From positions 1 through 64,000 of IMG/VR virus record IMGVR_UViG_3300030329_006476: DNA of 64,000 bases; one strand, given 5' to 3'. Below, in pieces: positions 21,579-36,155 of the stretch. Position numbers and translations under genes: made by a program. The stretch is from a virus. Below the pieces are notes generated by a model. The model had not been told where the DNA came from. It ran no database searches and saw nothing but the letters and a program-made list of their open reading frames with translations. Every line of letters begins with the position of its first letter. Positions within the stretch are counted from its first letter, which is position 1.

Positions 21579-21842
21579 ATTCCCTATAATATTCGCGGCA
21601 TGATGGTTTTTCTAATCTTTTTCAAACTTTAATAATTCCTTAAACAATAATTTGAAAGATCTCGCTTAAAATTGGTTCCGGATTTTTTTTGCTTCCGCCA
21701 TTATTTGAAATAACTGTATTGAATTTTGAAATTGAAAAAAGGGACCCCCCGCCACATTCTCACCAAAAGTTGACTGATTCAATCCATAAAAACGGTAGGG
21801 GTATCATGCAATAAAATAACCTAAAGTTCTTCATAAAAAAAT

Positions 21843-21871
21843 TTGCAATTAGATCATGGCTGTGTTACCTT
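21843..21871 (+). promoter_or_regulatory. sigma70-type early promoter (first of about 20 in 21.8-36.3 kb)
   Basis: A-tract, TTGCAA-N17-TACCTT; similar plus-strand -35 boxes at 22110, 22593, 22874, 24138, 24451, 24794, 25425, 25817, 26228. Confidence 0.75.
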
Positions 21872-21904
21872 ATAGTATAACAAATTAAAAAAGGAAAAAA
21901 AATT

Positions 21905-22093
21905 ATGTCCGTTAATCACATCGCAATCACTCCAGACGAAAACGACGAAGCTCTGCAAGAGTTCATCACGCAAGAAGGCTTCGTTCTCGTTGCTCCGGAA
22001 ATGGATCTCTTCGAATGTCCCGGCGGACACATCTGGCACATTGACCAGATCCTTGACCATATGAATGAATGCCTCAGGGAAAGCTGCCTATAA
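21905..22093 (+). CDS. Early hypothetical protein
   Basis: Promoter and AAAGGA RBS upstream. Confidence 0.7.
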   Translation: MSVNHIAITPDENDEALQEFITQEGFVLVAPEMDLFECPGGHIWHIDQILDHMNECLRESCL

Positions 22094-22144
22094 AAAGGCA
22101 AAATAAAATTTGACAAACAAGCCAAACTAGCGTAAGTTTATAAT

Positions 22145-22309
22145 ATGAATAATAAAGATAAAGCCGTCGTCGCCTTCTGGCAATCAGTCCAACGCAATGC
22201 TCAAGCCAACGGAATTCTGAAAGAGTTCCAAGCTTCCCAAGCTCCCAAGCTTAAAGCTCCCAAATTCACGCCCGCAATGCTGGCTTTCCTTGACACCTTA
22301 ACCAACTAA
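22145..22309 (+). CDS. Early small protein (54 aa, PKF.PA family)
   Basis: Manual ORF MNNKDKAVVAFW...PKLKAPKFTPAMLAFL, ATG 6 nt after the -10 box. Confidence 0.65.
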   Translation: MNNKDKAVVAFWQSVQRNAQANGILKEFQASQAPKLKAPKFTPAMLAFLDTLTN

Positions 22310-22329
22310 AAAAAACACACAAAACTATC

Positions 22330-22443
22330 ATGCACTATCTAGCTGAAAAGTACTCTCATGCAGTTAACGCCGTTGCCTATACGGTTAGCTTATACATCTG
22401 CCATGTTGTCCTAATGGACTGGATTCGTTTCCTAACTAGTTGA
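22330..22443 (+). CDS. Small hydrophobic peptide (37 aa)
   Basis: Manual ORF; stop lies inside repeat element 1. Confidence 0.4.
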   Translation: MHYLAEKYSHAVNAVAYTVSLYICHVVLMDWIRFLTS

Positions 22444-22512
22444 GCATCAACGAGTTACGACGCGGGCAGGGGGGCGCCGGCGTCATAAGTGCCTGACAGT
22501 CAAAGACTTACG
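22431..22512. repeat. 82-bp double-palindrome element, copy 1
   Basis: CCTAACTAGTTGA-gca-TCAACGAGTTACG + 24 bp GC-rich + CATAAGTGCCTGA-cag-TCAAAGACTTACG. Confidence 0.95.
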
Positions 22513-22655
22513 CAAATGCCGTACAAATACCGTGCCAATTCCGTGTAATGTGATTGTGCAAGAAAATAGTTGAATCTTTTTGATAAAAAAATTTGCAATA
22601 TCGGCAAAACTGTGATACCTTATAGTATAAGTTAAATTAAGAAAGGAAAAAAATC

Positions 22656-22856
22656 ATGAACATTCTCACCGATCAAGAACTTGCCGAAAGGCTCACCAAA
22701 AAAGAAGCCAACCTTGAATGGTGGGAGGCTAAGCTTGCCAAGTCTCGCAAGGCAAGCCTTATCGGGATTCGCTCTGCCCACTGTGCAATGCTCCGCAAAG
22801 AGATTGCCGAGATAAAAGGCGTTCAGTTTGCAAGGCATTGCGCCGAGCAAGTTTAA
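22656..22856 (+). CDS. Early hypothetical protein
   Basis: Promoter and GAAAGGA RBS upstream. Confidence 0.7.
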   Translation: MNILTDQELAERLTKKEANLEWWEAKLAKSRKASLIGIRSAHCAMLRKEIAEIKGVQFARHCAEQV

Positions 22857-22907
22857 AAAACTTCAGAAAAAATTTGACAAACCAGCAAAACTAGAGTAAG
22901 TTTAGGT

Positions 22908-23177
22908 ATGATAAAAATTAAAAGAGATCTACTCACAGGCAAAAAGGTTCCCCATGTCCTTTTCCGTCAGGCTGAAATCAAAATGAGCCTTTCCAGCGGT
23001 CGCACGCTTGGAACAGTTCAAACTCTGGACTTTCAAGAAGATGCTCCAACCAAAGAGCAATGGCTTGCAAAAGTCCGTAAATCTTGGGATGTCGCAGATA
23101 TCTCTTTCCGTGACTTTGGTGTCCAATCCTGCATTGCTCCTCGTGGGCATGATGCTTGGAAAACCGTAAATTCTTAA
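22908..23177 (+). CDS. Early hypothetical protein
   Basis: TTGACA-N17-TAAGTT, ATG 5 nt later. Confidence 0.7.
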   Translation: MIKIKRDLLTGKKVPHVLFRQAEIKMSLSSGRTLGTVQTLDFQEDAPTKEQWLAKVRKSWDVADISFRDFGVQSCIAPRGHDAWKTVNS

Positions 23178-23282
23178 AAATGATTGAAATAATAATGCTG
23201 CTAGTTTTCGCCTCTTTGGGGCATACAATTATCCACGCTTGGAAAGAAGCTTGACCTTTGTAAGAGTTTTTTTCTAAAAATT

Positions 23283-23321
23283 GACCGCTCTGTTTCCATG
23301 TTGGCAGGGCGGTCTTTTTTT
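23283..23321 (+). terminator. Intrinsic terminator
   Basis: GACCGCTCTG...CAGGGCGGTC followed by T7. Confidence 0.75.
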
Positions 23322-23335
23322 GCACGTATAATTCT

Positions 23336-23454
23336 CCTAACTCATTGACTATCAAGCACTTACGACGCTGGCGCGGGGCCCTCGCCGTCATAAGTCGTTG
23401 ATGTACAGGTAGTTACGTAAAATCTCCTAAGTCGTTGATAATCAACCCATTAAC
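23336..23454. repeat. 82-bp element, copy 2 (23336-23417) plus a third palindrome (23426-23454)
   Basis: Palindromes start at 23336, 23389 (+53) and 23426. Confidence 0.95.
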
Positions 23455-23508
23455 GAGGCGCGCCCGAAAAGATTCTATTTGTAAGGCCCGCGTTTCGAGG
23501 GCAAGCGC
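23455..23508. repeat. Secondary ~55-bp bulged-hairpin repeat, copy A
   Basis: GCGCCCGAAAAGATTCTATTTGTAAGGCCCGCGTTTCGAGGGC; near-copy at 24692-24746. Confidence 0.8.
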
Positions 23509-23591
23509 ATTGGGTAATAAATTAGTTTTTTATTCTTGGGCAAAAAATTTGACAAATAGCTTTTTATGCTGTATGTTGTAGATATAATAAG

Positions 23592-24026
23592 ATGAGGAAC
23601 ATACAAGACAGTTGCCCGTTGATAGTAATGCGAGACGATCCTAATCAGCTGACTCCTTGGCTAGATGATTGGAGTGACGATGATTGCCGACAGGTGCAAG
23701 CTATGGTTGACAGGCATGATGCAGTAATGAAGCCAACTCCGCTCACCAAGGATCAAGCGGGCGAAGCCCGACGCATGTGGGCAAGGTGGCAAGCCCACAC
23801 TACTGGCAAGAGCTTTGTTCTACAGGTGCAAAACAGGACTTGCGACCATACCTTTAGGGTTCACGCCCACGGCAAGAATGTGTTCCAAGCTGTCCTGAGG
23901 CATTACAGGGGATTAGGGCACAATGGCACCACCATATGGCAATGCACCAAGGTAGTTGCGGTATTCGACTGCGTTTGTGACCGAACTGTCCAAGCTGGCA
24001 AGTTGCTCTGCGGTAATCCAGTTTAG
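23592..24026 (+). CDS. Early hypothetical protein
   Basis: TTGACA promoter upstream; stop abuts element 3. Confidence 0.7.
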   Translation: MRNIQDSCPLIVMRDDPNQLTPWLDDWSDDDCRQVQAMVDRHDAVMKPTPLTKDQAGEARRMWARWQAHTTGKSFVLQVQNRTCDHTFRVHAHGKNVFQAVLRHYRGLGHNGTTIWQCTKVVAVFDCVCDRTVQAGKLLCGNPV

Positions 24027-24108
24027 CCTAAGTAGTTGGCTATTAATAGTTTACGGCCCGGAATCCCCCTGCGCGCCGTCATAAGTCGTTGACATTCAAT
24101 AACTTCTG
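24027..24108. repeat. 82-bp element, copy 3
   Basis: Palindromes at 24027 and 24080. Confidence 0.9.
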
Positions 24109-24172
24109 ACAAAATTAAAAATAAGTGATAAAAAAATTTGACTTTACCGCTAAAGTGGGGTATGTTGTTAGT

Positions 24173-24454
24173 ATGAATAAAGAATTACAATATCTATACT
24201 CAACGCAAGCTTTCGTGTCCACAAGGCATCGTAACGCCTTGCCTCTCTGGAACACGAAAACCAATTCCTTCGTGGATTCCACTAGCACTACGAACAACCT
24301 TGAATGCTGGGCAAAAAATGAATCTGAAGCCCGTGAAAAATTCTGCCGAATGGTTCGCCGTATTCAGAGCAAAGTCCAAATGCGTCAGAATTTCTTATGG
24401 AAAAAAGGCGATACTGCCGATTTTTACCTTACGCAAATTTGGCAAAAAATTTGA
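24173..24454 (+). CDS. Early hypothetical protein
   Basis: TTGACT-N17-TATGTT then ATG at 24173 (MNKELQ). Confidence 0.7.
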   Translation: MNKELQYLYSTQAFVSTRHRNALPLWNTKTNSFVDSTSTTNNLECWAKNESEAREKFCRMVRRIQSKVQMRQNFLWKKGDTADFYLTQIWQKI

Positions 24455-24484
24455 CTTTTCGCCTTAACTGAACTAGATTGAATT

Positions 24485-24592
24485 ATGATGAAAAAAATAA
24501 TAGACTTCCTAGAGGTAGCCATTCCCTTTATAGTAACAACGACGCTAGTAGTCACCATTGGCGGCTCCGCGTTTGCCTTGTGTTTTTTCTGA
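24485..24592 (+). CDS. Small membrane peptide (35 aa)
   Basis: Own promoter TTGACT-N17-TAGATT; hydrophobic ORF. Confidence 0.5.
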   Translation: MMKKIIDFLEVAIPFIVTTTLVVTIGGSAFALCFF

Positions 24593-24598
24593 AAATCC

Positions 24599-24680
24599 CC
24601 TAAGTACTTGAAGGTCAACGGGTTACGGCCCGGAGGCCCCGGCTCCGCTGTCGTAAGTCGTTGATAGTCAACACCTTGCA
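24599..24680. repeat. 82-bp element, copy 4
   Basis: Palindromes at 24599 and 24652. Confidence 0.95.
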
Positions 24681-24691
24681 TGACTCCAGCT

Positions 24692-24746
24692 GAGGGGCGC
24701 CCGAAAAGGTTCTATTTACAAGGCTCGCGTTTCGCGGGCCGGACGC
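24692..24746. repeat. Secondary ~55-bp bulged-hairpin repeat, copy B
   Basis: GCGCCCGAAAAGGTTCTATTTACAAGGCTCGCGTTTCGCGGGC. Confidence 0.8.
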
Positions 24747-24827
24747 TCTAGGATTAGTCAATAAAAATAAGCGAATTATGTAATACAAAAAATTTGCAAT
24801 CTCGCTGGAAATGGTTTACTTTGTATT

Positions 24828-24983
24828 ATGTTTATCTTACAAAGCATCTTGAACAAGGCTGGAGCCGTATGGGTTACGGAAACCCTCCCGCTGTCTAAAG
24901 CGAAAGCTCATAGAGTGATCGCTTCACGCCGTCAGAACGCAACTGGCAATCGACGCTTTCGCTTGGTAAAGGTGGGAACATGA
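24828..24983 (+). CDS. Early small basic protein (51 aa)
   Basis: TTGCAA-N17-TACTTT, ATG 5 nt later; ATGA-coupled to 24980-25087 and onward to 25084. Confidence 0.55.
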   Translation: MFILQSILNKAGAVWVTETLPLSKAKAHRVIASRRQNATGNRRFRLVKVGT

Positions 24984-25083
24984 AAAAAGTTAGGATTCCC
25001 ATGGTCTTTACTAAGGCTCGCCCTCACAAAAGAAAAAACAAAATTTTGCCACGCAAGGCAAAGCACAAGAAAGCTCTTATATC

Positions 25084-25416
25084 ATGACCCGTACTGTGAC
25101 GCATCACGCCTTCCAGAGGTTCGCGGATCGCTTGCGACCCTCCGAACAAGAAACAACCTTGAATAATGTCCGCACGGCTTGCCGTCAATATGGCTCCGAA
25201 TCGCTTGGGGTTATAGCATACAAGCTTCGCTCGCATCGTGGACAGCATTGGGGAATGTCAAGCAACGGGGATTATGTCGTCGCCATTGTAAGGAATGGTC
25301 AACTCGTCACGGCTTACTTGCGTCGAGGCACGCAAAGCTTTTGCACTAGCGTGACTCGCACTCGAGTCTTGGTGGACATGACGGGGAACCTACTGAAAAA
25401 ACCGATTTTTTCTTAA
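25084..25416 (+). CDS. Early hypothetical protein (THHAFQRFADR motif)
   Basis: 110 aa; T.HA.QR..R start resembles DUF4258/RelE-like small phage proteins. Confidence 0.65.
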   Translation: MTRTVTHHAFQRFADRLRPSEQETTLNNVRTACRQYGSESLGVIAYKLRSHRGQHWGMSSNGDYVVAIVRNGQLVTAYLRRGTQSFCTSVTRTRVLVDMTGNLLKKPIFS

Positions 25417-25458
25417 AAAATAATTTGACTTATGAGATAAACTGGAGTAGGTTATAGT

Positions 25459-25812
25459 ATGACAATTGAAAAAATAAAAGAAATTCTCGCCAATATAAAA
25501 GCCGAACTGGAAAAGGTTGAAAGCGTAGACATTGCCGAGGCGGTCAAGTCGATTAAATACATTGACTCCATGGGCGTAATGTCGACTTTGTCTGGAGCTG
25601 TCGAAGATATCGGAACCGATAGCTCCGAAGTTGCCGACTTGGACAATGCGTTTTTCTCGGCAAAAAGAAAGCTAGAAAATTCCTTGTACGCTTACGAGGA
25701 AAAAATCATCGAGCGACGAAAAGAGCTAGAGCTTGCCATTGACGACATCGAAAGCTTTCTGCATGATGGCGAGTTTGCGTATGCATCACGGGTCGCAAAA
25801 AACTTCGAATAA
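25459..25812 (+). CDS. Early helical hypothetical protein
   Basis: TTGACT-N17-TAGGTT, ATG 5 nt later. Confidence 0.7.
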   Translation: MTIEKIKEILANIKAELEKVESVDIAEAVKSIKYIDSMGVMSTLSGAVEDIGTDSSEVADLDNAFFSAKRKLENSLYAYEEKIIERRKELELAIDDIESFLHDGEFAYASRVAKNFE

Positions 25813-25850
25813 AAATTTGACTTTACCGCTAAAGTGGAGTAGGTTATAGT

Positions 25851-26054
25851 ATGAAGATTAAAAGAATAAGAGTAAAAGAATTCGATACTTTCTGGAGCAT
25901 TCGCATCTGGGACAGAGAAACGCAAGACCGCCCACGGGTTCGCACTGCAGGAATCGACGCCAAAGGGCGTGCGCCACATCTGGACAGGATTCTTGCCGAA
26001 GAAAAAAGCCCATGGGCAGGCGACTTCGACAGGGTCGAGGTGGTTTGGCAATAA
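25851..26054 (+). CDS. Early hypothetical protein
   Basis: TTGACT-N17-TAGGTT, ATG 5 nt later. Confidence 0.7.
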   Translation: MKIKRIRVKEFDTFWSIRIWDRETQDRPRVRTAGIDAKGRAPHLDRILAEEKSPWAGDFDRVEVVWQ

Positions 26055-26058
26055 AATC

Positions 26059-26140
26059 CCTAAACCCTTAAAGGTCAAGGAGTTACGACCCGGGGGCCGG
26101 GGGCACGCTGTCGTAAGTCGTTGATAATCAACAAGATACA
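26059..26140. repeat. 82-bp element, copy 5
   Basis: Palindromes at 26059 and 26112. Confidence 0.95.
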
Positions 26141-26262
26141 TTTTTGGAGACTCATGCACTTTTCCATTCGTTAGTTATTTAACCCTATTTGAATTGGTCC
26201 CCCGCGACAGATTTACTGAAAAAAAATTTGCATTCCTGTGCTTTATGTGCTAAGTTATTTAT

Positions 26263-26445
26263 ATGAAATCAAGAGAAGACCTAGAGCAAATCATCGACCG
26301 AGAATCTTCTGACGCAAACGACGGATGCGTTCGAGCAAGACTATTAGTTGTCAACGCCGAACTAGCCTTGGACGATTTGGACAACGCCGAACTAGCCATG
26401 AGGCTCAGACAACAAGAGGAGGAGGACGAATTATGCGCAATATAA
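26263..26445 (+). CDS. Early acidic protein
   Basis: TTGCAT-N17-TAAGTT upstream. Confidence 0.65.
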   Translation: MKSREDLEQIIDRESSDANDGCVRARLLVVNAELALDDLDNAELAMRLRQQEEEDELCAI

Positions 26446-26573
26446 TTAAAAATGCAAAAACGCTAGCGTTAGTAGCTCACCTGAAGAAACAGGAAACGGT
26501 TGCAACCCCCAAGCTGCAAAGGCCCAAGTTTTCCCCCGCTCAAATTGCATGGATGCAATCTAGTCGTAAGTAG
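26433..26573 (+). CDS. Early small protein (46 aa, PKF.PA family)
   Basis: GGAGG RBS; PKLQRPKFSPAQIAWM resembles 22145-22309. Confidence 0.6.
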   Translation: MRNIIKNAKTLALVAHLKKQETVATPKLQRPKFSPAQIAWMQSSRK

Positions 26574-26646
26574 CTCACCTTCAACGAGTTACGCGACGGC
26601 AGGCCCGGCGCCCGCGTCGTAAGTCGTTGGCTATCAAGGACTTACA
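26565..26646. repeat. 82-bp element, copy 6 (convergence point of + and - transcription)
   Basis: Palindromes at 26565 and 26618; both flanking stop codons lie inside it. Confidence 0.95.
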
Positions 26647-26887
26647 AAGAAACCCCCATCCCTTCAAGCCAATCGGCGAAAGCGAAAATGTGCCATCCCT
26701 CGGACAAGTTGACCTTTTCGGCAATGTCTATTATATTACCGCTTGCCCAATTTTTTTCCACACAAGCTTGCCCAATGCTAATGTCGTATTTTTCAGGGGT
26801 GCGGTCAGGATGTTGAGACGAACAAATCACGGGCATTCCATTGTCGCCTAGTTTTGTCAACACCCAAAAAGGTTTGTTCGATTCCAT
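26642..26887 (-). CDS. Early hypothetical protein
   Basis: 81 aa, TAATG-coupled to upstream gene. Confidence 0.65.
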   Translation of the reverse strand: MESNKPFWVLTKLGDNGMPVICSSQHPDRTPEKYDISIGQACVEKNWASGNIIDIAEKVNLSEGWHIFAFADWLEGMGVSL

Positions 26888-27612
26888 TAGGAATTTACCC
26901 CTTCCTGAACAAATCCTGTCTTATCCTTTTTTGCAAGACCCTTTTCAATTAGCCCCACGACTACGCCTTTTTTATCTAGAAAACGCAAATCGTTTTCGTC
27001 ACCGTTGACGACTTCAAATCCTTTCCAAGTCTTAGGAAGTTGATTGCGAAAAACTACGGCGACATTCCCGCCCATTTGCAAGACCATATCGCACAACGAA
27101 TCGTTATGTTCCGAGCGTGAAAAAGTCAAATGATAGTTTCTGGGAAAATCCTTTGCTTGGTTGACGAACTTTGCCATACGCTGAAAGGACTTGGTATAAT
27201 CGTAGAATTGAGAACCGCAGAAGTACTCAAAAATATTGTACGCAGGGTCTTTCATGAAAATCTTTTCCCATTCGATGTCGCTTGTGAGATTCAAACGGAA
27301 AACTGCCGTCATTTCCTTTTTGGTGGCAAGCTTAACTGTCGAAGCAATTTCTTTGCAAAGCTTACGCATGAAATCAGCTTGCTTTTCAAAAAACAATTTT
27401 GTCTTTGCAATGCGTGAATCTTGCGTGCGTTCCATGCGACCACGCCCTGCCGTATTCAAACAAGAGAAGGTGCAACCCTTGCTTCGCCAACGGCACGCCT
27501 CGTATCCTGAAAGATTTGCGGGAGCAAGATGAATACCCTTTGTAAGGTAACCAAGTTTTTCGCCTTTTACAATTTTGGCATTTCCTGCCGTGAGTAGAGT
27601 TTGCTTAATCAT
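26887..27612 (-). CDS. Gp88-like (radical-SAM-like Cys motif) phage protein
   Basis: C-x5-C-x3-CL..AGRG, RLNLTSDI.W, FYDYTK, NYHLTFS.SE, GD..DLRFLD. Confidence 0.7.
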   Translation of the reverse strand: MIKQTLLTAGNAKIVKGEKLGYLTKGIHLAPANLSGYEACRWRSKGCTFSCLNTAGRGRMERTQDSRIAKTKLFFEKQADFMRKLCKEIASTVKLATKKEMTAVFRLNLTSDIEWEKIFMKDPAYNIFEYFCGSQFYDYTKSFQRMAKFVNQAKDFPRNYHLTFSRSEHNDSLCDMVLQMGGNVAVVFRNQLPKTWKGFEVVNGDENDLRFLDKKGVVVGLIEKGLAKKDKTGFVQEGVNS

Positions 27613-27621
27613 GACTATAAC

Positions 27622-27783
27622 CTAACCTCTTTTGCTTTGTTTGTCAACAATTTCTTGTGCTTTTTTTATTCCCTTTTCCATGCCGAATTGGCTTACGAGT
27701 CGCTTGAATGTTTCCCAAGCAATCGTGTTTTCTGGCAAACTTTTCCATGCCTGCATTCTTTCTTGTGATGTGATGTTTTTCAT
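27622..27783 (-). CDS. Early small protein (53 aa)
   Basis: Manual ORF MKNITSQERM..., ATGA overlap. Confidence 0.5.
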   Translation of the reverse strand: MKNITSQERMQAWKSLPENTIAWETFKRLVSQFGMEKGIKKAQEIVDKQSKRG

Positions 27784-27953
27784 GAGTGTGCGGTTTTTCT
27801 GACGACTATCCAGTTTGACGCCATGCCCTCGACAAAGTCCTCGGCAACTTTTCTGCTAGGTGCTGTAATCTCGGCAACCTTTGGCTTGCCCGTGGTTTTG
27901 TCAACTGCTGCAATTTCAAACTTGAAAATCGCTTTAATATCGTTTTTGTCCAT
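27780..27953 (-). CDS. Early small protein (57 aa)
   Basis: Manual ORF MDKNDIKAIF..., promoter adjacent to element 7. Confidence 0.55.
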   Translation of the reverse strand: MDKNDIKAIFKFEIAAVDKTTGKPKVAEITAPSRKVAEDFVEGMASNWIVVRKTAHS

Positions 27954-28010
27954 GTCTTAATAAAACACAGATTCACTCAAAACGCAAATTTTTTCTTAAA
28001 CTTTTTTTGG

Positions 28011-28092
28011 CGCAAGTTGTTGATGTTCAAGCACTTACGACGAGGCGGCCGGGGCGCCAGCGACCTAAGTCGCTGACCATCAAGGATTTACC
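28011..28092. repeat. 82-bp element, copy 7
   Basis: Palindromes at 28011 and 28064. Confidence 0.95.
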
Positions 28093-28152
28093 CTACAATT
28101 TCTTTGTGCAGGATATAAAAGACAATTGCCCAAGTGATGACAAAGTAGAGAA

Positions 28153-28401
28153 TCATCCTAGAATCTTCTCAATGACTGGAGAGGCAATCAAATTGCGGAC
28201 AGCGTAACCTCGCTTACCGTACTGAGCACCCCTCACTACCGACTTGAAAGAGCGACTGACAAAATCATAATAGGCGGGAACGGCTGAACCTTCCCTGTTT
28301 ACATAGGTAAACCACAGCTTGTCACCTACCCTTTCAGCCTCTTGCGGTTGATAGTTGGCGACTGCGTGAGCCTTCTTGGCAAATGAGAACTCTTGTTGCA
28401 T
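28153..28401 (-). CDS. Early hypothetical protein
   Basis: GAAAGGA RBS. Confidence 0.7.
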   Translation of the reverse strand: MQQEFSFAKKAHAVANYQPQEAERVGDKLWFTYVNREGSAVPAYYDFVSRSFKSVVRGAQYGKRGYAVRNLIASPVIEKILG

Positions 28402-28425
28402 TGCTTTTCCTTTCTTTTGAGTTTT

Positions 28426-28731
28426 TTAATAGGCTTGAATTACCAAGCCACCGTTGTCCAATTCTAAAACCAAAGTTTCCTCTCTGAAATAGTTGAGGAC
28501 ATCGTCATCGTCCTCGCAATCTTCGGGAACCGAATAATCGCTCTTGAGTTCGTTCAGGTCTTCATATTCTGAAAACTCGCAACAAATGGCAATCGGGTCA
28601 AGTTCCATGTCGGGGCTTACTTCCTCGAAGAAATCAAACAAAGCCTTGCGACCTGCCACAGAGAAATTTTCTGACCTGTTCATCTGGTCAAAGGCGTTAA
28701 CGAAATCTCGCTCAGTAATTGTTTTAATCAT
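28426..28731 (-). CDS. Acidic conserved phage protein (ELDPIAICCEFSEY)
   Basis: GAAAGGA RBS; motif recurrent in phage early proteins. Confidence 0.7.
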   Translation of the reverse strand: MIKTITERDFVNAFDQMNRSENFSVAGRKALFDFFEEVSPDMELDPIAICCEFSEYEDLNELKSDYSVPEDCEDDDDVLNYFREETLVLELDNGGLVIQAY

Positions 28732-28750
28732 GGTTTTTTATTCCTTTCTT

Positions 28751-29146
28751 TTAGTTGTAAATCTCGGCTTGATGCTTTTCTTTTGCCAAATGTAAGTTGT
28801 CGATGAAATCCGTGGCTCCATCGCCTTGTAAATTGTTCATCAACTTGTTGATGTCGTCTTTGGTTTGCCATCCAAGCACATCGTCATAAGAAGCAAGAGG
28901 AATCATGGAATCATTTCTGAAAACCGCAACCTCATAAGTTCCCTTGGACGCATTGCCATAAAGCCCGCCGAAGGATTGGTCTTTATCTTTCATAGCGACC
29001 ACAGAAATCTGTAAACCATTTCCAAGGTCAAGCTTGGCTTGAATGGCATCTGCTTTAACAGCGTGTGCGTTAAACTTTAGGTCTTGGAAGCTATAATGCT
29101 TACGAAACAAAGACCTTAACCAATTTAATATCTTCTTTACTGTCAT
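28751..29146 (-). CDS. Early hypothetical protein (YEVAV...DVLGW type)
   Basis: Start taken at 29146, just after the promoter. Confidence 0.7.
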   Translation of the reverse strand: MTVKKILNWLRSLFRKHYSFQDLKFNAHAVKADAIQAKLDLGNGLQISVVAMKDKDQSFGGLYGNASKGTYEVAVFRNDSMIPLASYDDVLGWQTKDDINKLMNNLQGDGATDFIDNLHLAKEKHQAEIYN

Positions 29147-29209
29147 AGTAATAATATCGCACACTTTACCCCTAAACGCAAATAAAAAATGAACTTTTTT
29201 TAAAATAGT

Positions 29210-29291
29210 TCTAACTCGTTGGCAGTGAAGGGGTTATGACTCGCGCGGCGGGGCCCTCGGCCCCTAAGTCGTTGAGTATCAGCGGCTTACG
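29210..29291. repeat. 82-bp element, copy 8
   Basis: Palindromes at 29210 and 29263. Confidence 0.9.
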
Positions 29292-29292
29292 C

Positions 29293-29475
29293 CTATTGTG
29301 TCGACGCTTTGCCTATGGTGTAGGGCGAGTGACTCGCGTATCGGTCAATATTACGCTCCAGAATTTTAATCATCTCCACAGCAGCGTTCAAGGTATATAA
29401 ATCCTTTGTGCCGTCTGAAGCCCTCAAGGCTTTGCCGTGCTTTAGTATAACATAGTTGTTTAATTGTGAATCCAT
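29293..29475 (-). CDS. Early hypothetical protein
   Basis: Stop abuts element 8. Confidence 0.6.
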   Translation of the reverse strand: MDSQLNNYVILKHGKALRASDGTKDLYTLNAAVEMIKILERNIDRYASHSPYTIGKASTQ

Positions 29476-29481
29476 TGTATA

Positions 29482-29763
29482 TTAGTTTAAATACCCCCAA
29501 TTTTTTATAGGATTAACTTGCTTTCTTAACTCGCTAGGAGAATCTTCTTCTCTTTGAGCTAACCTCTTGACCTCCCTGTCAGACAATTCAAGACTTCTAG
29601 GGATGTCGGGAGACTTGGGGTCATCAACGATTAAATGTAATGACATTCCCGGGTCTGCTATTACCTTAAAGGTTTTTTCGCAAAAATCGGGAATCCTCTC
29701 AGCTTTAATCCCCAAGGCGTTTAGATGTTTAGTGGCTAGTTCAAAAGTTTTGTTATCAATCAT
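29482..29763 (-). CDS. Early hypothetical protein
   Basis: Start MIDNK at 29763. Confidence 0.6.
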   Translation of the reverse strand: MIDNKTFELATKHLNALGIKAERIPDFCEKTFKVIADPGMSLHLIVDDPKSPDIPRSLELSDREVKRLAQREEDSPSELRKQVNPIKNWGYLN

Positions 29764-29770
29764 GACACCC

Positions 29771-30055
29771 TTAGTCCTTTTGGTTGAATGTGGCAAGCAA
29801 TTCTGGGCTTGCGTCCGCATAAGCCTCGTCTTCCTCGTCTACGCTTTCAGCCGAGTCAGTGCCGAGAAAACTCAATTCGTCGCCCAAATCCGTCTGGTCA
29901 GGTGCAAGTTGCCCGTGTTCGGCAAGAAAAGCTTCGGTCGCTTCTTGCTCGACGATTTCCTCAACTTCTTGCTTGGTGAGGGCAGGTTGACCATTTTTTA
30001 CTCTCTGCAAGGTTGCCTCGTAGATTCTGCGTTTTGCTTCTTCAGTATAATCCAT
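29771..30055 (-). CDS. Early acidic protein
   Basis: GAGGAG RBS, start MDYTEE. Confidence 0.65.
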   Translation of the reverse strand: MDYTEEAKRRIYEATLQRVKNGQPALTKQEVEEIVEQEATEAFLAEHGQLAPDQTDLGDELSFLGTDSAESVDEEDEAYADASPELLATFNQKD

Positions 30056-30057
30056 TT

Positions 30058-30240
30058 TTAGATTTCTCCTCTCGTTACTAAGTTGCCCAAAAAAGAGAAT
30101 CCTGCATCCCCTTCTTTCTTGGCGAGTTTGTTGGCAAGGCGAAGTGCCTTTGCCCGACTTTGGACTTGCTCTACAAGGAATCCTCCAACAAAAATGTTGA
30201 ACCATCCTTGGAGATTTTCGTTTTTCTCAATCTTAATCAT
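30058..30240 (-). CDS. Early hypothetical protein
   Basis: TTGCAT-N17-TACCTT then ATG at 30240. Confidence 0.65.
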   Translation of the reverse strand: MIKIEKNENLQGWFNIFVGGFLVEQVQSRAKALRLANKLAKKEGDAGFSFLGNLVTRGEI

Positions 30241-30309
30241 ACTTACAAGGTAAACTAGTTTTGCGCAAAATGCAAATAAAAAATGAACTTTTTTTAAAAA
30301 TAAAGTGAA

Positions 30310-30493
30310 TGAGAGTCGAGCCGCCACACTCGATAAAGCTTTCAAGGGTTGACCTACTAGGCGTTGTACTGCCTCTCAAAATTGTGTCTCGTGCTGTGCC
30401 ACATGACTGCACCCAGATTTGTGAAGGTTGCGATCCTCCTGTCTTGAGGGGTTTATGTCTCAAGTCTGACACGAGACTGAAATGTTAAAGAAC
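30310..30493 (-). ncRNA. Candidate structured ncRNA unit (boxA + 92-nt and 69-nt closed domains)
   Basis: Promoter TTGCAA(30529)-N17-TATTGT; boxA-like GTTCTTTAACAT; closing stems GUCUCGUG/CACGAGAC and UGAGAG/CUCUCA. Confidence 0.6.
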
Positions 30494-30557
30494 TATAAAT
30501 ACAATAACCCCGAAACCTAATAATTGCAAGAAAAAAGTGAAGTTTTTTACAAATAGT

Positions 30558-30639
30558 CGTAACCCTCTGACTGTCAAGGAGTTACGACCGGCACGGCCCG
30601 GCGCCCGAGTCATAAGTCGTTGATAGTCAAAGACTTGCA
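30558..30639. repeat. 82-bp element, copy 9
   Basis: Palindromes at 30558 and 30611. Confidence 0.95.
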
Positions 30640-30655
30640 ACCAAATAAGTGATCC

Positions 30656-30693
30656 AAAAAAACCCCCAGAGATTTCTCTCCGGGGGCTTTATT
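30656..30693 (-). terminator. Intrinsic terminator after the DUF932 gene
   Basis: A7-CCCCC-AGAGA...TCTCT-C-GGGGG hairpin. Confidence 0.75.
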
Positions 30694-30723
30694 TGGTAGG
30701 GATTCGTTTCCTTTTTGGACGCC

Positions 30724-31557
30724 TTAGGACAGGGTGACCAATCCCTCTTGTACATCCACTTCCGCATAAGGGTCAAGTACGGAATGCAAAGCATAGGAGC
30801 GATTTCTCACATTCGTGGGCTGATTGAAGTTCACATGACTTCCCTTGTAGGTTTCGGTGAAGGCATTGTAAAGAGAATTTACATTCCTGTCCCAAAATTC
30901 GGAATGGTCGCTACTTTCCCATTGGTTGAGAACATCAGGAATTTGCGTGACATTTATCGCCTTCGCCTTGTAAGCTTGGATAATAAGGTCATTAGCCTCG
31001 GAATTGCTAATCTCTCTGTTCTTGTAGCCATCAACCCTTGTATCTTGGGTGTTCCACATGGTGAAGAGCTTTCCAATCCCCTCTACCATTCTTTGCCTGA
31101 ACGATTCAAGTAATTGTGGCAGTTCGCCAGTATGCTTATGCTTTACCTCAACCTCATTTGAGAAAATCAAATTATCACAAACAAAGGGTGCATCTCCTGC
31201 ACACATACCAACCGAAAACTTCTTGTCATTGGAGTTTCGCAATCCTACGACTGTCCCACGCTCGTTTTGACCCTTTCTGGTGGAATGGGTAACTTGAAAC
31301 AAACCAAAGTAACGCTTTCCTTCGTGACCAAGATTGTGGCATTCGTTCTCTACCCTGAAGTTTCTTTCGTTCAAAACGGAACGCAACGAGTCGATTACAT
31401 CCTTGTGGGGTAACGGTTGGTGGGAAATCGAAACGCTTCCATCCTTTCTGGCTTTTTGCCGATAAGTGGCTGGAGGGGTTGGGGTTGCTTTTACTCGTGA
31501 TAGGCAAACTACTTCGTGTTGGTTTCCGCAGATGCTTAAGTCTAATTTTTTTGTCAT
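30724..31557 (-). CDS. DUF932-family protein
   Basis: GLRNSND...AG...FVCDNL, KHT and SLYNAFTE motifs; start MTKKLD with AAGGA RBS. Confidence 0.75.
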   Translation of the reverse strand: MTKKLDLSICGNQHEVVCLSRVKATPTPPATYRQKARKDGSVSISHQPLPHKDVIDSLRSVLNERNFRVENECHNLGHEGKRYFGLFQVTHSTRKGQNERGTVVGLRNSNDKKFSVGMCAGDAPFVCDNLIFSNEVEVKHKHTGELPQLLESFRQRMVEGIGKLFTMWNTQDTRVDGYKNREISNSEANDLIIQAYKAKAINVTQIPDVLNQWESSDHSEFWDRNVNSLYNAFTETYKGSHVNFNQPTNVRNRSYALHSVLDPYAEVDVQEGLVTLS

Positions 31558-31623
31558 AATTTTATCCTTACTTTGTTGTTTTAATATATATACAATATAA
31601 TAATGGTGGGTTTTTGTCAATAG

Positions 31624-31866
31624 TTAATTTCGATAATTTTGATGTAATTTACCTTGCTCGTAAAGTTCTTCGTAGCTAATGGCTTTATCGGCAATAAGCT
31701 TGAGGTGGGCGCGGACTGCTCCAAGGATAACTTTGTCATCCAAGGAGAGCTTGGAATCCATAGGGCGAATTAAAAGTTCTGCAATTACTTCGAGGCAAGC
31801 CCCAAAGCTTTCGGCGGTTCCAAGGTCATCAACTAGAACTTCTTCTTTGTTATTGTTAAATCTCAT
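31624..31866 (-). CDS. Early hypothetical protein
   Basis: Promoter adjacent to element 10. Confidence 0.65.
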   Translation of the reverse strand: MRFNNNKEEVLVDDLGTAESFGACLEVIAELLIRPMDSKLSLDDKVILGAVRAHLKLIADKAISYEELYEQGKLHQNYRN

Positions 31867-31929
31867 TTTATAATAATCGCATAAAACAGAATAAAACGCA
31901 AGGAAAAAAATCGTTTTTTAAAAAAAAGT

Positions 31930-32011
31930 TGTAAACCCCTCTGCATCAACAAGTTACGACGGCAGGGGCCCCGCGCCGGCGCCGCAAGTCCTTGATGGTC
32001 AACGACTTACG
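31930..32011. repeat. 82-bp element, copy 10
   Basis: Palindromes at 31930 and 31983. Confidence 0.9.
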
Positions 32012-32034
32012 GCCCGGGAGGAGATTCGTGGCTC

Positions 32035-32253
32035 TTAGGCTCTTCGCTCCAAGTCGTAAAGCTTGTTCAGCAAATTGCGGTGATAATCCTTCTTTTGGTA
32101 ATAATCGGGAGTGTTTTCACCGTACATTTCCCGCACGGCAAGCTGGTACCCCAATTCTCTGAGGGCATGGCTTATTTTGAGGGCAGCTTTTCGCTCCCCT
32201 ATTTGCTTGTCGGTCAATTCCTTCCCTAGGAGTAGTTCTGGTGACGCAGTCAT
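32035..32253 (-). CDS. Early hypothetical protein
   Basis: ORF track; compact operon. Confidence 0.6.
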   Translation of the reverse strand: MTASPELLLGKELTDKQIGERKAALKISHALRELGYQLAVREMYGENTPDYYQKKDYHRNLLNKLYDLERRA

Positions 32254-32254
32254 C

Positions 32255-32491
32255 TTATACTCTATTCAATGCCACTACTCGGTCGTACCTGAACGAACGA
32301 TAGGCGTTACGATTGTGACAATAAGCTCGGAAGCCTGCCACCTTCACGCCTTCAGCCACATTTCCAAATTCCCGTTCGTGGTCGGGCTTATCGATGGTAT
32401 ACAACTCCGTCCTCCCGTCTTGCGTCTTGTAGACCAATTGGAATACGGGATTCTTGAGTAGGCGTTGGATTTTCTTTAGTGCTTTCTTCAT
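32255..32491 (-). CDS. Stand-alone WYL-like domain protein
   Basis: LVYKTQDG.T...AYCHNRNAYRSFRYDRV. Confidence 0.65.
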   Translation of the reverse strand: MKKALKKIQRLLKNPVFQLVYKTQDGRTELYTIDKPDHEREFGNVAEGVKVAGFRAYCHNRNAYRSFRYDRVVALNRV

Positions 32492-32498
32492 ATCGGTA

Positions 32499-32708
32499 TT
32501 AGTTTTCTTCGGGTTGCGTGTTAAGGTAAACTCGATTTGCCTCGTCTACTGTATCGAAGGGGATTTCCAGATAGTCTTTGTCCAACTTGTATGGACAATG
32601 AGGCGAATCAGCTTCCTCGTAAATTAAAAGGTACTGGTCGTTTTCCTTGTCGTATATGGGTTTGTCCTCCGCAGGGAGAACGCAATTTTCTCGAATGTAG
32701 TTAATCAT
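32499..32708 (-). CDS. Early hypothetical protein
   Basis: ORF track. Confidence 0.6.
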   Translation of the reverse strand: MINYIRENCVLPAEDKPIYDKENDQYLLIYEEADSPHCPYKLDKDYLEIPFDTVDEANRVYLNTQPEEN

Positions 32709-32725
32709 GGCGCTATTCTCTCAGA

Positions 32726-32983
32726 TTAAGAGGTGGTTGTCAAGTCTGCTTTGCTATCTTCCTCGACTTCCACCCCAAGGTGGCTCATTAGCTCGTACAT
32801 CGCGGGGTCATACTTGAAGTATTCATATGCGTGGTTGAGTAAACGAGTCAAATCAGAGTGGGAAGATTCGGTTCCCCTGTACCCTACATAAGAACTCATC
32901 TCCTTTACCTCATCGTATATCTCAAAGATATTGAGATTCCAATTCCAACCTTCGACTCTCGCTTCAATTTCTTTATCGGTCAT
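32726..32983 (-). CDS. Early hypothetical protein
   Basis: AAGGAG RBS. Confidence 0.65.
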   Translation of the reverse strand: MTDKEIEARVEGWNWNLNIFEIYDEVKEMSSYVGYRGTESSHSDLTRLLNHAYEYFKYDPAMYELMSHLGVEVEEDSKADLTTTS

Positions 32984-33260
32984 TTTTTTGCTCCTTTACT
33001 TTTTCGTTGTGTTCGTCTGCCCACTTGGCGAGACTAAGAAGTTCTTCCTTAATCTCCCTTTTGGATTGGTCGGACGCTTTTGGATTAGCGAGAACTGCTA
33101 CCATGGTGGGTATGAGTCCTTGCCATTTGGGTGTGATGTCGATTTCTTTCATTTAAAGCTAACTTCCAAAGTACTTTCCGTGATGATTATAGTGCCACCC
33201 CCTGCGTTCTTGAGGCGAGCTTGAAGTTCTTTTACCATTTCTGCGAATTCTTGCATTGTG

Positions 33261-33461
33261 CTATTCCCCCTGAAGTTTCTCCATATGGACAACAGACTCA
33301 TGCTCTTCCCATAGCTTCTCCCCCAATTCTCCAAGACTTTTATAGAGAGGCATCCACGGGTCACTCTTATCTACCTTTCCCCCCATCTCAGAGTAAAGTA
33401 TATGCTCTCTAAGTAGAGCAGACATTTCCAGTAATTGCTTGTAGTACTTTGTATCATTCAT
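33261..33461 (-). CDS. Early hypothetical protein
   Basis: ORF track. Confidence 0.55.
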   Translation of the reverse strand: MNDTKYYKQLLEMSALLREHILYSEMGGKVDKSDPWMPLYKSLGELGEKLWEEHESVVHMEKLQGE

Positions 33462-33473
33462 GCGTGTATTCTC

Positions 33474-33695
33474 TCAAATTTTGGTTGCGTTGTCAATAGA
33501 AAATTCAAAACTTTTCGCCTTGCAATAACATTCCGTTAAATACTCCTCAATCTCCTCGAATATAGAGTAAACATCCTGCCCGTATGCATAGATATCGTCT
33601 CCGTGCTCAAGTTCGTGCTCCATAGAGGTAGGGAGGCTATCCAACAAGTATTCATTGTCAGTTTCCCAGTTTATGTCGGTAATAGAGGCAATCAT
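33474..33695 (-). CDS. Acidic early protein (ITDINWETD type)
   Basis: ORF track. Confidence 0.6.
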   Translation of the reverse strand: MIASITDINWETDNEYLLDSLPTSMEHELEHGDDIYAYGQDVYSIFEEIEEYLTECYCKAKSFEFSIDNATKI

Positions 33696-33699
33696 GTCT

Positions 33700-34101
33700 T
33701 TACCACCAACAACTATAGTAAACCTTTTGTCCCTCAGAGATTGCTTCTCTTGCCTCTCTGATAAAGTTTAGGTCAGTTTCCTTGTAGTAATAGTCTCCAT
33801 CTTCAAATGGCTTCCCATCTTCATCTTCCCAAGAGAAAGAGTCTTCTCCGAAAAAGAATCCACCTGTTTCGGGTAGCGATTTGTTCTCAATATGAGCTTC
33901 AAGTTGCTCAAGGTCAGAAAGAGTAACCTCAAGCTCGATACAATTAAACCCACCTTCTTTTGCGTTTGGGCAACCCTTGTCCACCCAAAGTTGTTCCATC
34001 CAACCTTGGAGTCGATTATGCTTTCGCCAGTAAGCGAGTTCAATGTTTTCTTCCGAGGTTTCCTCTGGAAGCCTTCTGTATGCGTATTGGTCTAATCCCA
34101 T
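33700..34101 (-). CDS. Conserved phage protein (MGLD...YWRK.N...W family)
   Basis: MGLDQY, YWRKHN, GFFFG, VYYSCWW; AAGGAG RBS. Confidence 0.75.
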   Translation of the reverse strand: MGLDQYAYRRLPEETSEENIELAYWRKHNRLQGWMEQLWVDKGCPNAKEGGFNCIELEVTLSDLEQLEAHIENKSLPETGGFFFGEDSFSWEDEDGKPFEDGDYYYKETDLNFIREAREAISEGQKVYYSCWW

Positions 34102-34113
34102 TTTTTTATCTCC

Positions 34114-34404
34114 TTATAGTTGCGCTGAATTAAAAGAGGAGGTGATGCCAATCTCGTCTCGAAGCAAAGTCAAGTCTGTAATAATATCGTCGAGGACTTC
34201 CTCTGCCGACTGAATGGTATAACCTTCCTTGCCCTTATGAAATGCGTTTTTCACCCTGTCCATGCAAACTGGGTCATTCGGGGTGCAATAACGCAAATTG
34301 CCGTGAACTAGTTGAACGATTGTTTGTCGGATTTCTGATTGTTTCATGGGTTTTAACATATCAAATTGAGGTTTACTACGCAAGCCTAAAAACGAAATCT
34401 TCAA
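34114..34404 (-). CDS. Early hypothetical protein
   Basis: ORF track; true start probably later. Confidence 0.55.
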   Translation of the reverse strand: MKISFLGLRSKPQFDMLKPMKQSEIRQTIVQLVHGNLRYCTPNDPVCMDRVKNAFHKGKEGYTIQSAEEVLDDIITDLTLLRDEIGITSSFNSAQL

Positions 34405-34576
34405 AGTAATCTGGCTCTAGACCAAATTCTTGGACAAATTCATTTTGCCATTGGAAGATGTCGCCTCCAGCGTCGATGTCTTCACACATCTCGAAAAAGA
34501 AACGCCAGACTTGTTTTTTTGCGTCCGCTTGAGATAAACCGTCACGGGACATTAGGATTTTTATTGTTTCAATCAT
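34376..34576 (-). CDS. Conserved phage protein (ILM.RDG...FGLEPDY)
   Basis: Motif recurrent in phage early proteins; promoter next to element 11. Confidence 0.7.
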   Translation of the reverse strand: MIETIKILMSRDGLSQADAKKQVWRFFFEMCEDIDAGGDIFQWQNEFVQEFGLEPDYFEDFVFRLA

Positions 34577-34639
34577 GCCTCCATAATGACAGATTGGGGG
34601 TAAAACGCAAGAAAAAAATGCATTAAAAGCGAAAATAGT

Positions 34640-34721
34640 TCTAACCCCTTGGTATTCAAGGACTTGCGCGGGCGGGGAGGCACCCTTGGGCCCCTAAACC
34701 CTTTACGGTCAAACACTTAGG
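34640..34721. repeat. 82-bp element, copy 11
   Basis: Palindromes at 34640 and 34693. Confidence 0.9.
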
Positions 34722-35136
34722 ACGCTGACGCCCTAACCTCTTGGGGGTGCAGCTGAACGAATGAAGCGAACCACCGAGGCTTTTCCGTTCGTTGGTCTAC
34801 GAACGATTCGTACTTGTAGGGATTATAAGTGACTGGCGTCATTTCCCACCAACCCAAGTCATCCCAACAAGCAAACTCAGGTTCAGGATGGGATAAAAAC
34901 CCTCGCACCCCTGCATGAACATTCTTTCTTTGTTCTCGCAGGACTTTTTCTCTACCCTTGCGGTTTACCTTAAAGGCACATGAGTACAAGCGTATCACAT
35001 CATTTTTCTCGGTATGAGCCTTAACTAATCCATCTTGTTTTATCGACCAGCAATTCTTGTGAAGGTTCTTGTAAACAAATACCTTTCTGCTTTCGTCAAT
35101 TTTGTACCGTGGGTCTTCTTGCTTTAATTTAATCAT
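34717..35136 (-). CDS. Conserved phage protein (VY.NLHK..WS...KNVHA)
   Basis: Recurrent phage motif; stop inside element 11. Confidence 0.7.
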   Translation of the reverse strand: MIKLKQEDPRYKIDESRKVFVYKNLHKNCWSIKQDGLVKAHTEKNDVIRLYSCAFKVNRKGREKVLREQRKNVHAGVRGFLSHPEPEFACWDDLGWWEMTPVTYNPYKYESFVDQRTEKPRWFASFVQLHPQEVRASAS

Positions 35137-35387
35137 TACTTTACTCCGAATACTTCTTTTAACTTTTGGAAGCTTGAAGATTTAATAAAAACTTCTCTGC
35201 AGTAGTCTCCATGCAATCTCTCAACTGCCTCGATGCGATGAGCAACTCGGGACGCAGGACAGGCTTCTCTTGGAAGATAACCCCATTTAATAATCAATGT
35301 AGTATCGGGGAAATAGCAAGCAAGCTCTTGGCATTGCTCGGCATCCACATTACCCCATTGGGCGACAATCTCTTTTAGTAGTTTCAT
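35136..35387 (-). CDS. Early hypothetical protein
   Basis: TTGACT promoter adjacent to element 12. Confidence 0.65.
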   Translation of the reverse strand: MKLLKEIVAQWGNVDAEQCQELACYFPDTTLIIKWGYLPREACPASRVAHRIEAVERLHGDYCREVFIKSSSFQKLKEVFGVK

Positions 35388-35447
35388 GTCTCTAAATATG
35401 ACAGATTACACCTTTAAAGTCAAGGGGTTTTTTAAAAAAAGATTTCG

Positions 35448-35529
35448 CGTAACCCTTTCTCCCTCAATGACTTACGCGTCTAGACTCCCGCGCGCCGCGC
35501 CCTAACCCCTTGACCCTCAAGGACTTACG
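35448..35529. repeat. 82-bp element, copy 12
   Basis: Palindromes at 35448 and 35501. Confidence 0.9.
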
Positions 35530-35857: not shown

Positions 35858-35874
35858 ACCCACGAAAAAATAGA

Positions 35875-36059
35875 TGTGGGGAAGGATTACTGTATACCTT
35901 CAACTTTTCGGCGTGAACATCAGTTCATAGATTACCTACTTCGAACCACAGATCAGACATGGTATTAGTCTTATGCTCATCCGATTGGACTCCGCACCCC
36001 CACCACAGGGGATCTGCATACCTTAGCCCGCTCACGACAGGCTTGTTCGGTCACCCACA
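35875..36059 (-). ncRNA. manA-motif-like structured RNA (~185 nt)
   Basis: Terminal stem UGUGGG/CCCACA; GACCGAACAA, UAAGGU, GUGGUG, UACCA and GAAGGUAUACAGUAAUCCUUC blocks in the order recalled for the Rfam manA motif. Confidence 0.65.
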
Positions 36060-36155
36060 GGACGCCTCCGTCGAGACATCCAAAATACAACTCAAGACAG
36101 GCTGGGCAGATTACCCGTGAGAACCAGTGAGGCCTGTCCTGAGCTTAAAAAGAAA

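Follow-up and report, generated by a model that had tools for sequence, protein, structure and literature searches.

The early region of an uncultured marine phage was found to be divided into cassettes by twelve copies of an 82-bp element, each consisting of two 29-bp palindromes on either side of a central spacer. The elements lie within a 64,000-bp stretch of DNA (hereafter, the window) that corresponds to bases 1–64,000 of the linear, 103,799-bp IMG/VR record IMGVR_UViG_3300030329_006476 (79% complete; referred to as G000). The reading we favour, with a probability of roughly 0.55, is that each element is a terminator/promoter boundary module resembling the PeSLs (promoter-early stem-loops), to which putative docking sites for an architectural protein have been added, and that recombination between copies shuffles the cassettes. 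The observations carrying this reading are the anatomy of the element, the absence of covariation in its palindromes, the fit of the palindrome arms to the IHF consensus, the coupling of the elements to promoters, and the existence of cassette insertions and deletions (indels) running from element to element. A first-pass annotation of the sequence, made by a model, had proposed an undescribed phage cis-system. No paper on the double palindrome was found in the literature, but the overall layout, including the shuffling, is that of the published PeSL cassettes of T4-type phages, which combine a terminator, an early promoter and small ORFan genes (PMC2839356; PMC4122927).

The twelve copies were recovered directly by a repeat finder at the starts listed in the first-pass annotation, and all of them aligned in register. 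Element 1 occupies positions 22431–22512 (first palindrome, P1, 22431–22459; GC spacer; second palindrome, P2, 22484–22512). Elements 2 to 6 lie at 23336–23417, 24027–24108, 24599–24680, 26059–26140 and 26565–26646, and elements 7 to 12 at 28011–28092, 29210–29291, 30558–30639, 31930–32011, 34640–34721 and 35448–35529. The whole genome was rescanned with a symmetric weight matrix derived from the 24 half sites, and the scan returned these half sites with scores of 21–40 (for P1 and P2 of elements 1 to 12, respectively: 35.0 and 33.1; 34.0 and 28.8; 21.3 and 25.9; 35.4 and 29.8; 30.9 and 30.4; 32.5 and 36.5; 32.3 and 31.3; 27.8 and 35.6; 35.6 and 32.1; 21.0 and 39.8; 28.1 and 26.0; 26.9 and 37.2), plus one borderline match (8.0) and an extra half site with a score of 15.5. 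The latter (23426–23454), which contains an exact match to the core, is a third half site located 37 bp after P2 of element 2. Across 20 shuffled genomes the top score seldom reached 12 and never exceeded 16. All of the half sites, including the extra one, lie between 22.4 and 35.5 kb, with none elsewhere in the genome. The offset from P1 to P2 is 53 bp in 12 of 12 copies, as had been claimed, and the spacers are 24 bp long in every case and mostly >85% GC. The copies are only 45–78% identical to one another, yet their length and recognition positions are kept; the central 3 nt of the palindrome varies between copies, as does the central 7-mer if the palindrome is parsed as 11-7-11. Direct and inverted identities among the 12 copies are equal (49.6 versus 48.8 of 82 positions), so that no orientation can be assigned, and the copies do not face transcription in any consistent way.

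The same palindrome was detected by pattern scan at at least 119 IMG/VR loci, many of them with double-palindrome arrays. A search based on the GP88-like protein encoded in the array region provided 65 further loci, most of which bear arrays, some a single recognisable palindrome beside a terminator, and some none. Altogether, the palindrome is carried by hundreds of IMG/VR phage contigs. Three further genomes were included in the analysis, G001 (211 kb, 100% complete), G002 (95% complete) and G003, for which the exact-pattern scan was too strict to map the arrays. Within a contig the spacing of the palindromes is constant, to about ±1 bp, while between contigs it takes values of 41/42, 46/47, 48, 49/50, 51–53, 55, 58 and 60 bp, every helical phase being represented. 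The 53-bp offset had been taken as five helical turns and as evidence that geometry is under selection. Length is indeed constant within a genome or lineage, but since it ranges from 41 to 60 bp across relatives, five turns cannot be a general rule. Of the contigs of ≥50 kb among the GP88-like loci (L128–L191), about half, the complete 211-kb G001 being one of them, have the GP88/array region ≤~12 kb from a contig end; the array may therefore adjoin a genome terminus or terminal repeat, or the repeats may break assemblies.

The elements are placed at the boundaries of transcription units. Among 350 element centres, 29 fell inside an open reading frame (ORF) of ≥90 aa, such ORFs covering 51% of the array spans. 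In G000, the contacts with stop codons were as annotated: they involve the ORFs at 22330–22443 (only 37 aa long), 23592–24026, whose stop is abutted by element 3, 26325–26573 (plus strand) and 26642–26887 (minus strand), whose stops lie in the outer arms of element 6, 29293–29475 (minus strand), and 34717–35136 (minus strand), whose stop is overlapped by element 11. Element 6 marks the strand switch, the plus- and minus-strand units converging there, and the units measure 506–2710 bp from start to start. Elements follow the stop of a gene. The promoters are of the sigma70 type and face outward; around 411 elements of the relatives, outward promoter-like sites peaked at 25–29 bp (53 cases) and at 35–39 bp (31 cases) from the element edge. 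On the minus strand of G000 the order is element, short A/T-rich tract, TTGCGT or TTTGCG, −10 box, and an ATG 4–7 nt later. On that strand, a promoter with an A/T-rich upstream tract follows element 8 after ~28 bp, and the one following element 12 (35395–35423, minus strand) reads TTGACT-17-CATATT. On the plus strand, the early promoter of the unit after element 1 (22586–22630) comprises an A tract, TTTGCA and then TATAGT, and belongs to repeat family D13, and that after element 3 (24138–24166; TTGACT-17-TATGTT) starts 30 bp beyond the element and is followed by an ATG within a few bases. Most early units look leaderless, with the ATG 4–7 nt after the −10 box (e.g. after elements 3, 5, 7, 8, 10, 11 and 12), and the same is seen in relatives such as L139. 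The promoter scaffolds are themselves repeated at 21834–25875 of the window (families D5, D7 and D13). In addition, a 48-nt GC-rich segment is present after elements 2 and 4, before the next promoter (23455–23502 and 24692–24739; 88% identical), and may contain small hairpins.

The arms of the palindromes showed no covariation. In 417 unique half sites, Watson–Crick pairing of mirror positions equalled the expectation for independent columns. In 433 elements, the pairs observed versus those expected under independence were 3937 versus 3844 within P1, 3805 versus 3781 within P2, 4106 versus 4084 for the inner arms, and 3627 versus 3644 for the outer arms. With no covariation in any pairing scheme, the palindromes behave as recognition sites in double-stranded DNA rather than hairpins, their symmetry arising from each arm being held to the consensus and not from pairing. 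Such symmetry is the signature of a dimeric protein that reads duplex DNA. The invariant columns of the 417 half sites are TAA..TTGA...TCAA..TTA. Read from the centre outward, the arm is W-A-TCAA-N4-TTA, which fits the IHF consensus WATCAANNNNTTR (PMC1874591; PMC10380432). Most arms in G000 match 7–9 of the 9 specified positions, and the IHF core occurs 30 times in the 984 bp of the elements compared to 100 times in the whole of G000. Across the 433 elements, the inner arms (those beside the spacer) are better conserved than the outer ones. IHF sites are found, for instance, upstream of phage early promoters and at oriC. What the elements share with them is the TCAA-N4-TTA after a W-rich centre in each arm, a location upstream of promoters (the site at about −78) and, in some bacteria, single copies of the palindrome beside dnaA and gyrB. 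They differ in symmetry: only one half of a known IHF site carries the consensus, whereas the present ones form a mirrored pair with additional conserved positions.

The protein that reads these sites is probably of cellular origin. No HU/IHF homologue (PF00216) was found in G000, G001, G002 or G003, and the absence of such a gene from G000 and from the complete, element-bearing G001 and G002 fits a host-encoded factor. In a genome scan, the matches listed included a single true array, whose contig had been assigned to the bin of an uncultured Enterobacterales metagenome-assembled genome (MAG), as well as single palindromes in bacterial genomes, where bases outside the search pattern also matched the consensus. 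One of these single palindromes is 340 bp upstream of dnaA in a Fibrobacter, another is directly upstream of gyrB in a Gemmatimonadaceae bin, and a third type is found at a conserved position in three Fibrobacter genomes, before an operon composed of a 136-aa ORF and an M23 peptidase gene (the bacterial single-copy positions are L289:5616, L252:6661, L228:6540; L282:3090; L204:511). Conserved chromosomal palindromes near dnaA, gyrB and the M23 operon favour a cellular reader. The excess of Bacteroidota and Fibrobacterota among the matches listed was not taken as a host signal. The chromosomal copies also bear on an alternative in which a dedicated regulator encoded by the phage, either a repressor or an activator, would use the palindromes as operators to switch the early promoters, instead of a host architectural protein binding them. 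Palindromic sites would suit a dimer of that kind, their strong conservation across many phages and preferred distance from promoters would be expected of operators, and G000 encodes several helix-turn-helix (HTH) proteins and sigma-like factors. However, G001 and G002 bear elements but have no homologue of the G000 HTH_8 protein, and ORF clustering over 34 array loci found no family common to all of them, the best being DUF932, present at 17 of the 34. Together with the presence of the same palindrome on bacterial chromosomes from several phyla, at conserved positions, this makes phage operators an unlikely explanation. The identity of the binding protein is the weakest link of the composite reading.

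The central block differs among lineages. In the 58-bp class the spacer contains a GC stem, a tetraloop and a T run (z-score −2.3), and in the L139/L140 lineage it consists of an A-tract, a GC stem and a T-tract, i.e. a bidirectional terminator. The shorter classes have a small GC hairpin, and covariation was seen at some positions of the spacer in the 41-, 42- and 50-bp classes. Overall, the spacers gave a mean folding z-score of −0.45, convincing in the 58-bp class only; in G000 it was ~0 except for element 1, the sole copy with a well-folding spacer (z −2.0), and a terminator scan reported 0 of the 12 G000 elements as an intrinsic terminator. We read the centre as a terminator that became, in the lineage of G000, mainly a GC-rich block of fixed length. 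The terminator-like centres, the covarying spacer positions and the location at the 3′ end of units could also suggest that the whole element acts as RNA, as three hairpins at the end of an early transcript that terminate or stabilise the mRNA, or direct its processing, like the RNase III sites of T7 or REP stabilisers. Such a role is quite unlikely: covariation was absent from every pairing scheme of the palindromes, the G000 spacers are no more stable than shuffled sequences and lack a T run, and an element with no consistent polarity relative to transcription, and no Rfam match, is not what would be expected of it. Furthermore, two elements are preceded by terminators of their own, element 2 by an intrinsic terminator located directly upstream (23283–23314), and element 9, on the minus strand, by a hairpin with a T run that resembles an intrinsic terminator, also directly upstream.

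Comparison of related contigs showed that entire cassettes are gained and lost between elements. In five independent indels, one contig bears two elements around a cassette of 0.4–2.3 kb and its relative a single element, onto which both of the former align. In two of the five, the single element is chimeric, with the left flank and first palindrome of one copy, and the second palindrome and right flank of the other. L150 and L151 also carry their cassettes in a different order. Homology breakpoints were found ≤30 bp from elements in 32% of cases, compared to 11.5% for random positions (P = 3 × 10–7). A stricter form of this breakpoint statistic (see below) was not significant; the five cassette gains or losses, which lie exactly between two elements, are the stronger evidence. 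Many other clean indels were not bounded by elements, which are therefore one route among several.

The cassette indels lying exactly between elements, the chimeric junction elements and the fact that the sites are short inverted repeats might suggest that a site-specific recombination system, either integron-like, pdif-like or using the host XerCD, recognises the palindromes as its core sites and excises and inserts the cassettes; the first-pass annotation had parsed the 29-mer as an 11-7-11 tyrosine-recombinase core. This was not supported. No tyrosine recombinase (PF00589) was found in G000, G001, G002 or G003, nor any Y1 transposase (PF01797) in G000; the centre, whether taken as 3 nt or as the 7 nt of an 11-7-11 core, differs between copies, which would block strand exchange by a tyrosine recombinase; and the arms are symmetric, unlike those of XerC/XerD sites. 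The statement that no recombinase is present in the window was correct for tyrosine recombinases, which are missing from the rest of G000 as well, but a UvsX-like recombinase is encoded outside the window. Homologous exchange thus offers a simpler mechanism which, with the many clean indels lacking elements at their ends, renders site-specific recombination improbable. What stood of the proposed repeated cis-system that partitions the early genes into cassettes is, therefore, an element with the features of a protein site and whole-cassette differences between relatives, but not its identification with tyrosine-recombinase sites. Finally, a selfish nature of the elements, as miniature repeats of the REP, REPIN or MITE kind spreading through intergenic DNA at no benefit to the phage, is very improbable, since, although they are dispersed, palindromic and intergenic and G000 has a TnpB-like gene at 69.4–70.8 kb, they occur in the early region alone, a single copy at each unit boundary, keep their recognition positions and length at 45–78% identity, show neither the hairpin covariation of REPINs nor, in G000, a Y1/RAYT gene (PF01797), and have a promoter coupling that is conserved across distant lineages. 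Contigs from other metagenomes were seen to join one promoter copy to another unit, so exchange may take place at the promoters as well. In four marine or estuary runs, some contigs diverge from the reference at elements and promoters; they were discarded as evidence, as most joint sides measure 21–32 letters and may be elements of other phages.

From these observations we infer which protein binds and what its effect on transcription would be. The two 29-bp palindromes would be duplex sites at which a dimeric architectural protein docks, the likeliest candidate being a host-encoded protein of the IHF/HU (DNABII) type. Between them lies the central block, a terminator in some lineages but no more than a GC-rich clamp in G000. 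The module follows the stop of one unit and is itself followed by an A/T-rich tract and a sigma70-type promoter, which would drive the next small and mostly leaderless genes. Once bound, the sharply bent DNA could isolate neighbouring units from read-through or torsional stress and aid the next promoter, the nearer palindrome being centred near −78. As near-identical sites recur every 0.5–2.7 kb, recombination between them would add, remove or move whole cassettes, as PeSLs do in T4-type phages.

Several observations weigh against this reading. The sites are mirrored, and their N4 positions and an outer CG are also conserved, while IHF sites of the E. coli type are asymmetric and have an A/T-rich half; a different dimeric protein could therefore be the reader. 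The sole hint of a host is the array contig binned with the Enterobacterales MAG. Across lineages the spacing covers all helical phases, so no single fixed geometry is required. The spacers of G000, except for that of copy 1, fold no better than shuffled GC-rich sequence and have no T run, and the terminators found directly upstream of elements 2 and 9 indicate that at least these two have termination signals of their own. On the plus strand of G000 the distance between element and promoter varies from 30 to 131 bp, owing to extra inserted sequence. Lastly, when only intergenic positions were used as the null, the excess of breakpoints at elements was not significant (44% versus 34%, P = 0.09), and the role in recombination therefore rests on the clean indels and the chimeras.

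Among known systems, PeSLs are the closest. Both are repeated composite motifs located between small, mostly ORFan early genes and concentrated in a hyperplastic region, in both a terminator-type element is directly followed by an A/T-rich tract and then a sigma70-like promoter, and in both the cassettes are inserted, deleted, replaced or moved at the motifs between related phages. As for the stem-loop terminator that precedes the promoter in PeSLs, it is canonical in the centres of some lineages, while the G000 spacers are GC-rich, fold like shuffled sequences and lack the T run. There are also clear differences: the stem-loops of PeSLs are ordinary hairpins with no conserved sequence, whereas here two conserved 29-bp palindromes without covariation flank the centre; the centre in G000 is not a selected hairpin; and G000 is not a T4-type phage, since it has a DnaE-type polymerase and no close isolate, despite its rIIA/B and UvsX-like genes. 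A second comparison is with the RIB/RIP (BIME-1) elements of E. coli, which are found at the 3′ ends of operons and in which two inverted REP units reportedly enclose an IHF site. Like the phage elements, they recur outside genes, where transcription units end (3′ side), and bring together IHF-type sites and palindromic DNA rich in G and C. The order is the reverse in the phage element, which has a GC-rich centre between two IHF-like palindromes, and RIB/RIP elements are chromosomal while the present ones are found in phages, coupled to a downstream promoter and marking cassette boundaries. In cluster A mycobacteriophages, the phage repressor binds to stoperators, asymmetric 13-bp sites that are oriented with transcription and are considered to block elongation. 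Stoperators resemble the present elements in that many copies of one protein-binding site (a putative one in our case) are distributed across phage transcription units, but the elements described here are symmetric, paired and intergenic.

If the favoured reading is correct, the element would provide a sequence-defined marker for early-gene cassettes, the usual seat of anti-defence and host-takeover genes, in hundreds of uncultured phage genomes, and would point to a concrete host factor on which such phages may depend. It would also carry the PeSL idea, in which regulatory repeats drive modular shuffling, further than the T4-type phages, with a protein-binding component added. As the palindrome marks conserved chromosomal sites in several bacterial phyla, including sites beside dnaA and gyrB, its reader protein may be of wider interest. 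A more ambitious proposal, which we consider doubtful, is that a very large group of uncultured aquatic phages uses a conserved, mirrored pair of docking sites for a host DNA-bending protein as the standard connector of its early genes. This connector would be a bidirectional insulator that replaces or reinforces the terminator, fires the next promoter and turns each early gene into a hot-swappable cassette, an integrase-free counterpart of the integron run by the homologous recombination of the phage.

The remainder of the genome gives some context for the array. G000 encodes rIIA, rIIB, a large terminase, PhoH and sigma-like factors, together with a DnaE-type polymerase, a DnaB-like helicase and, outside the window, the UvsX-like recombinase and the TnpB-like protein. 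The latter, a TnpB/Cas12f-like protein (PF07282), is specified by positions 69428–70771 of G000 on the minus strand (L192:7428–8771), amid genes for sigma-like and Fis-type HTH regulators located at 66.9–72.5 kb. No close isolate phage was found for G000: megablast of the 22–36 kb region against isolate phages gave no match, and blastn of one whole element against isolates rendered merely two short matches at chance level. The genes of the array region are mostly ORFans, the exceptions being GP88-like, DUF932 and L5 gp82-like genes. The stretch is present in marine and estuary metagenomes from 14 studies (2014–2025), with no RNA dataset among the sequencing runs listed. A scan of the window at Rfam gathering thresholds found no family on the elements, its sole match being a manA RNA (35871–36081, minus strand; 86.6 bits, full length). 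This RNA adjoins element 12, lying upstream of it in the sense of transcription, and is 87% identical in the syntenic relative L038. Past the array, at 36298–36542 of the window, three tandem units of ~100 nt are present (repeat family D8).

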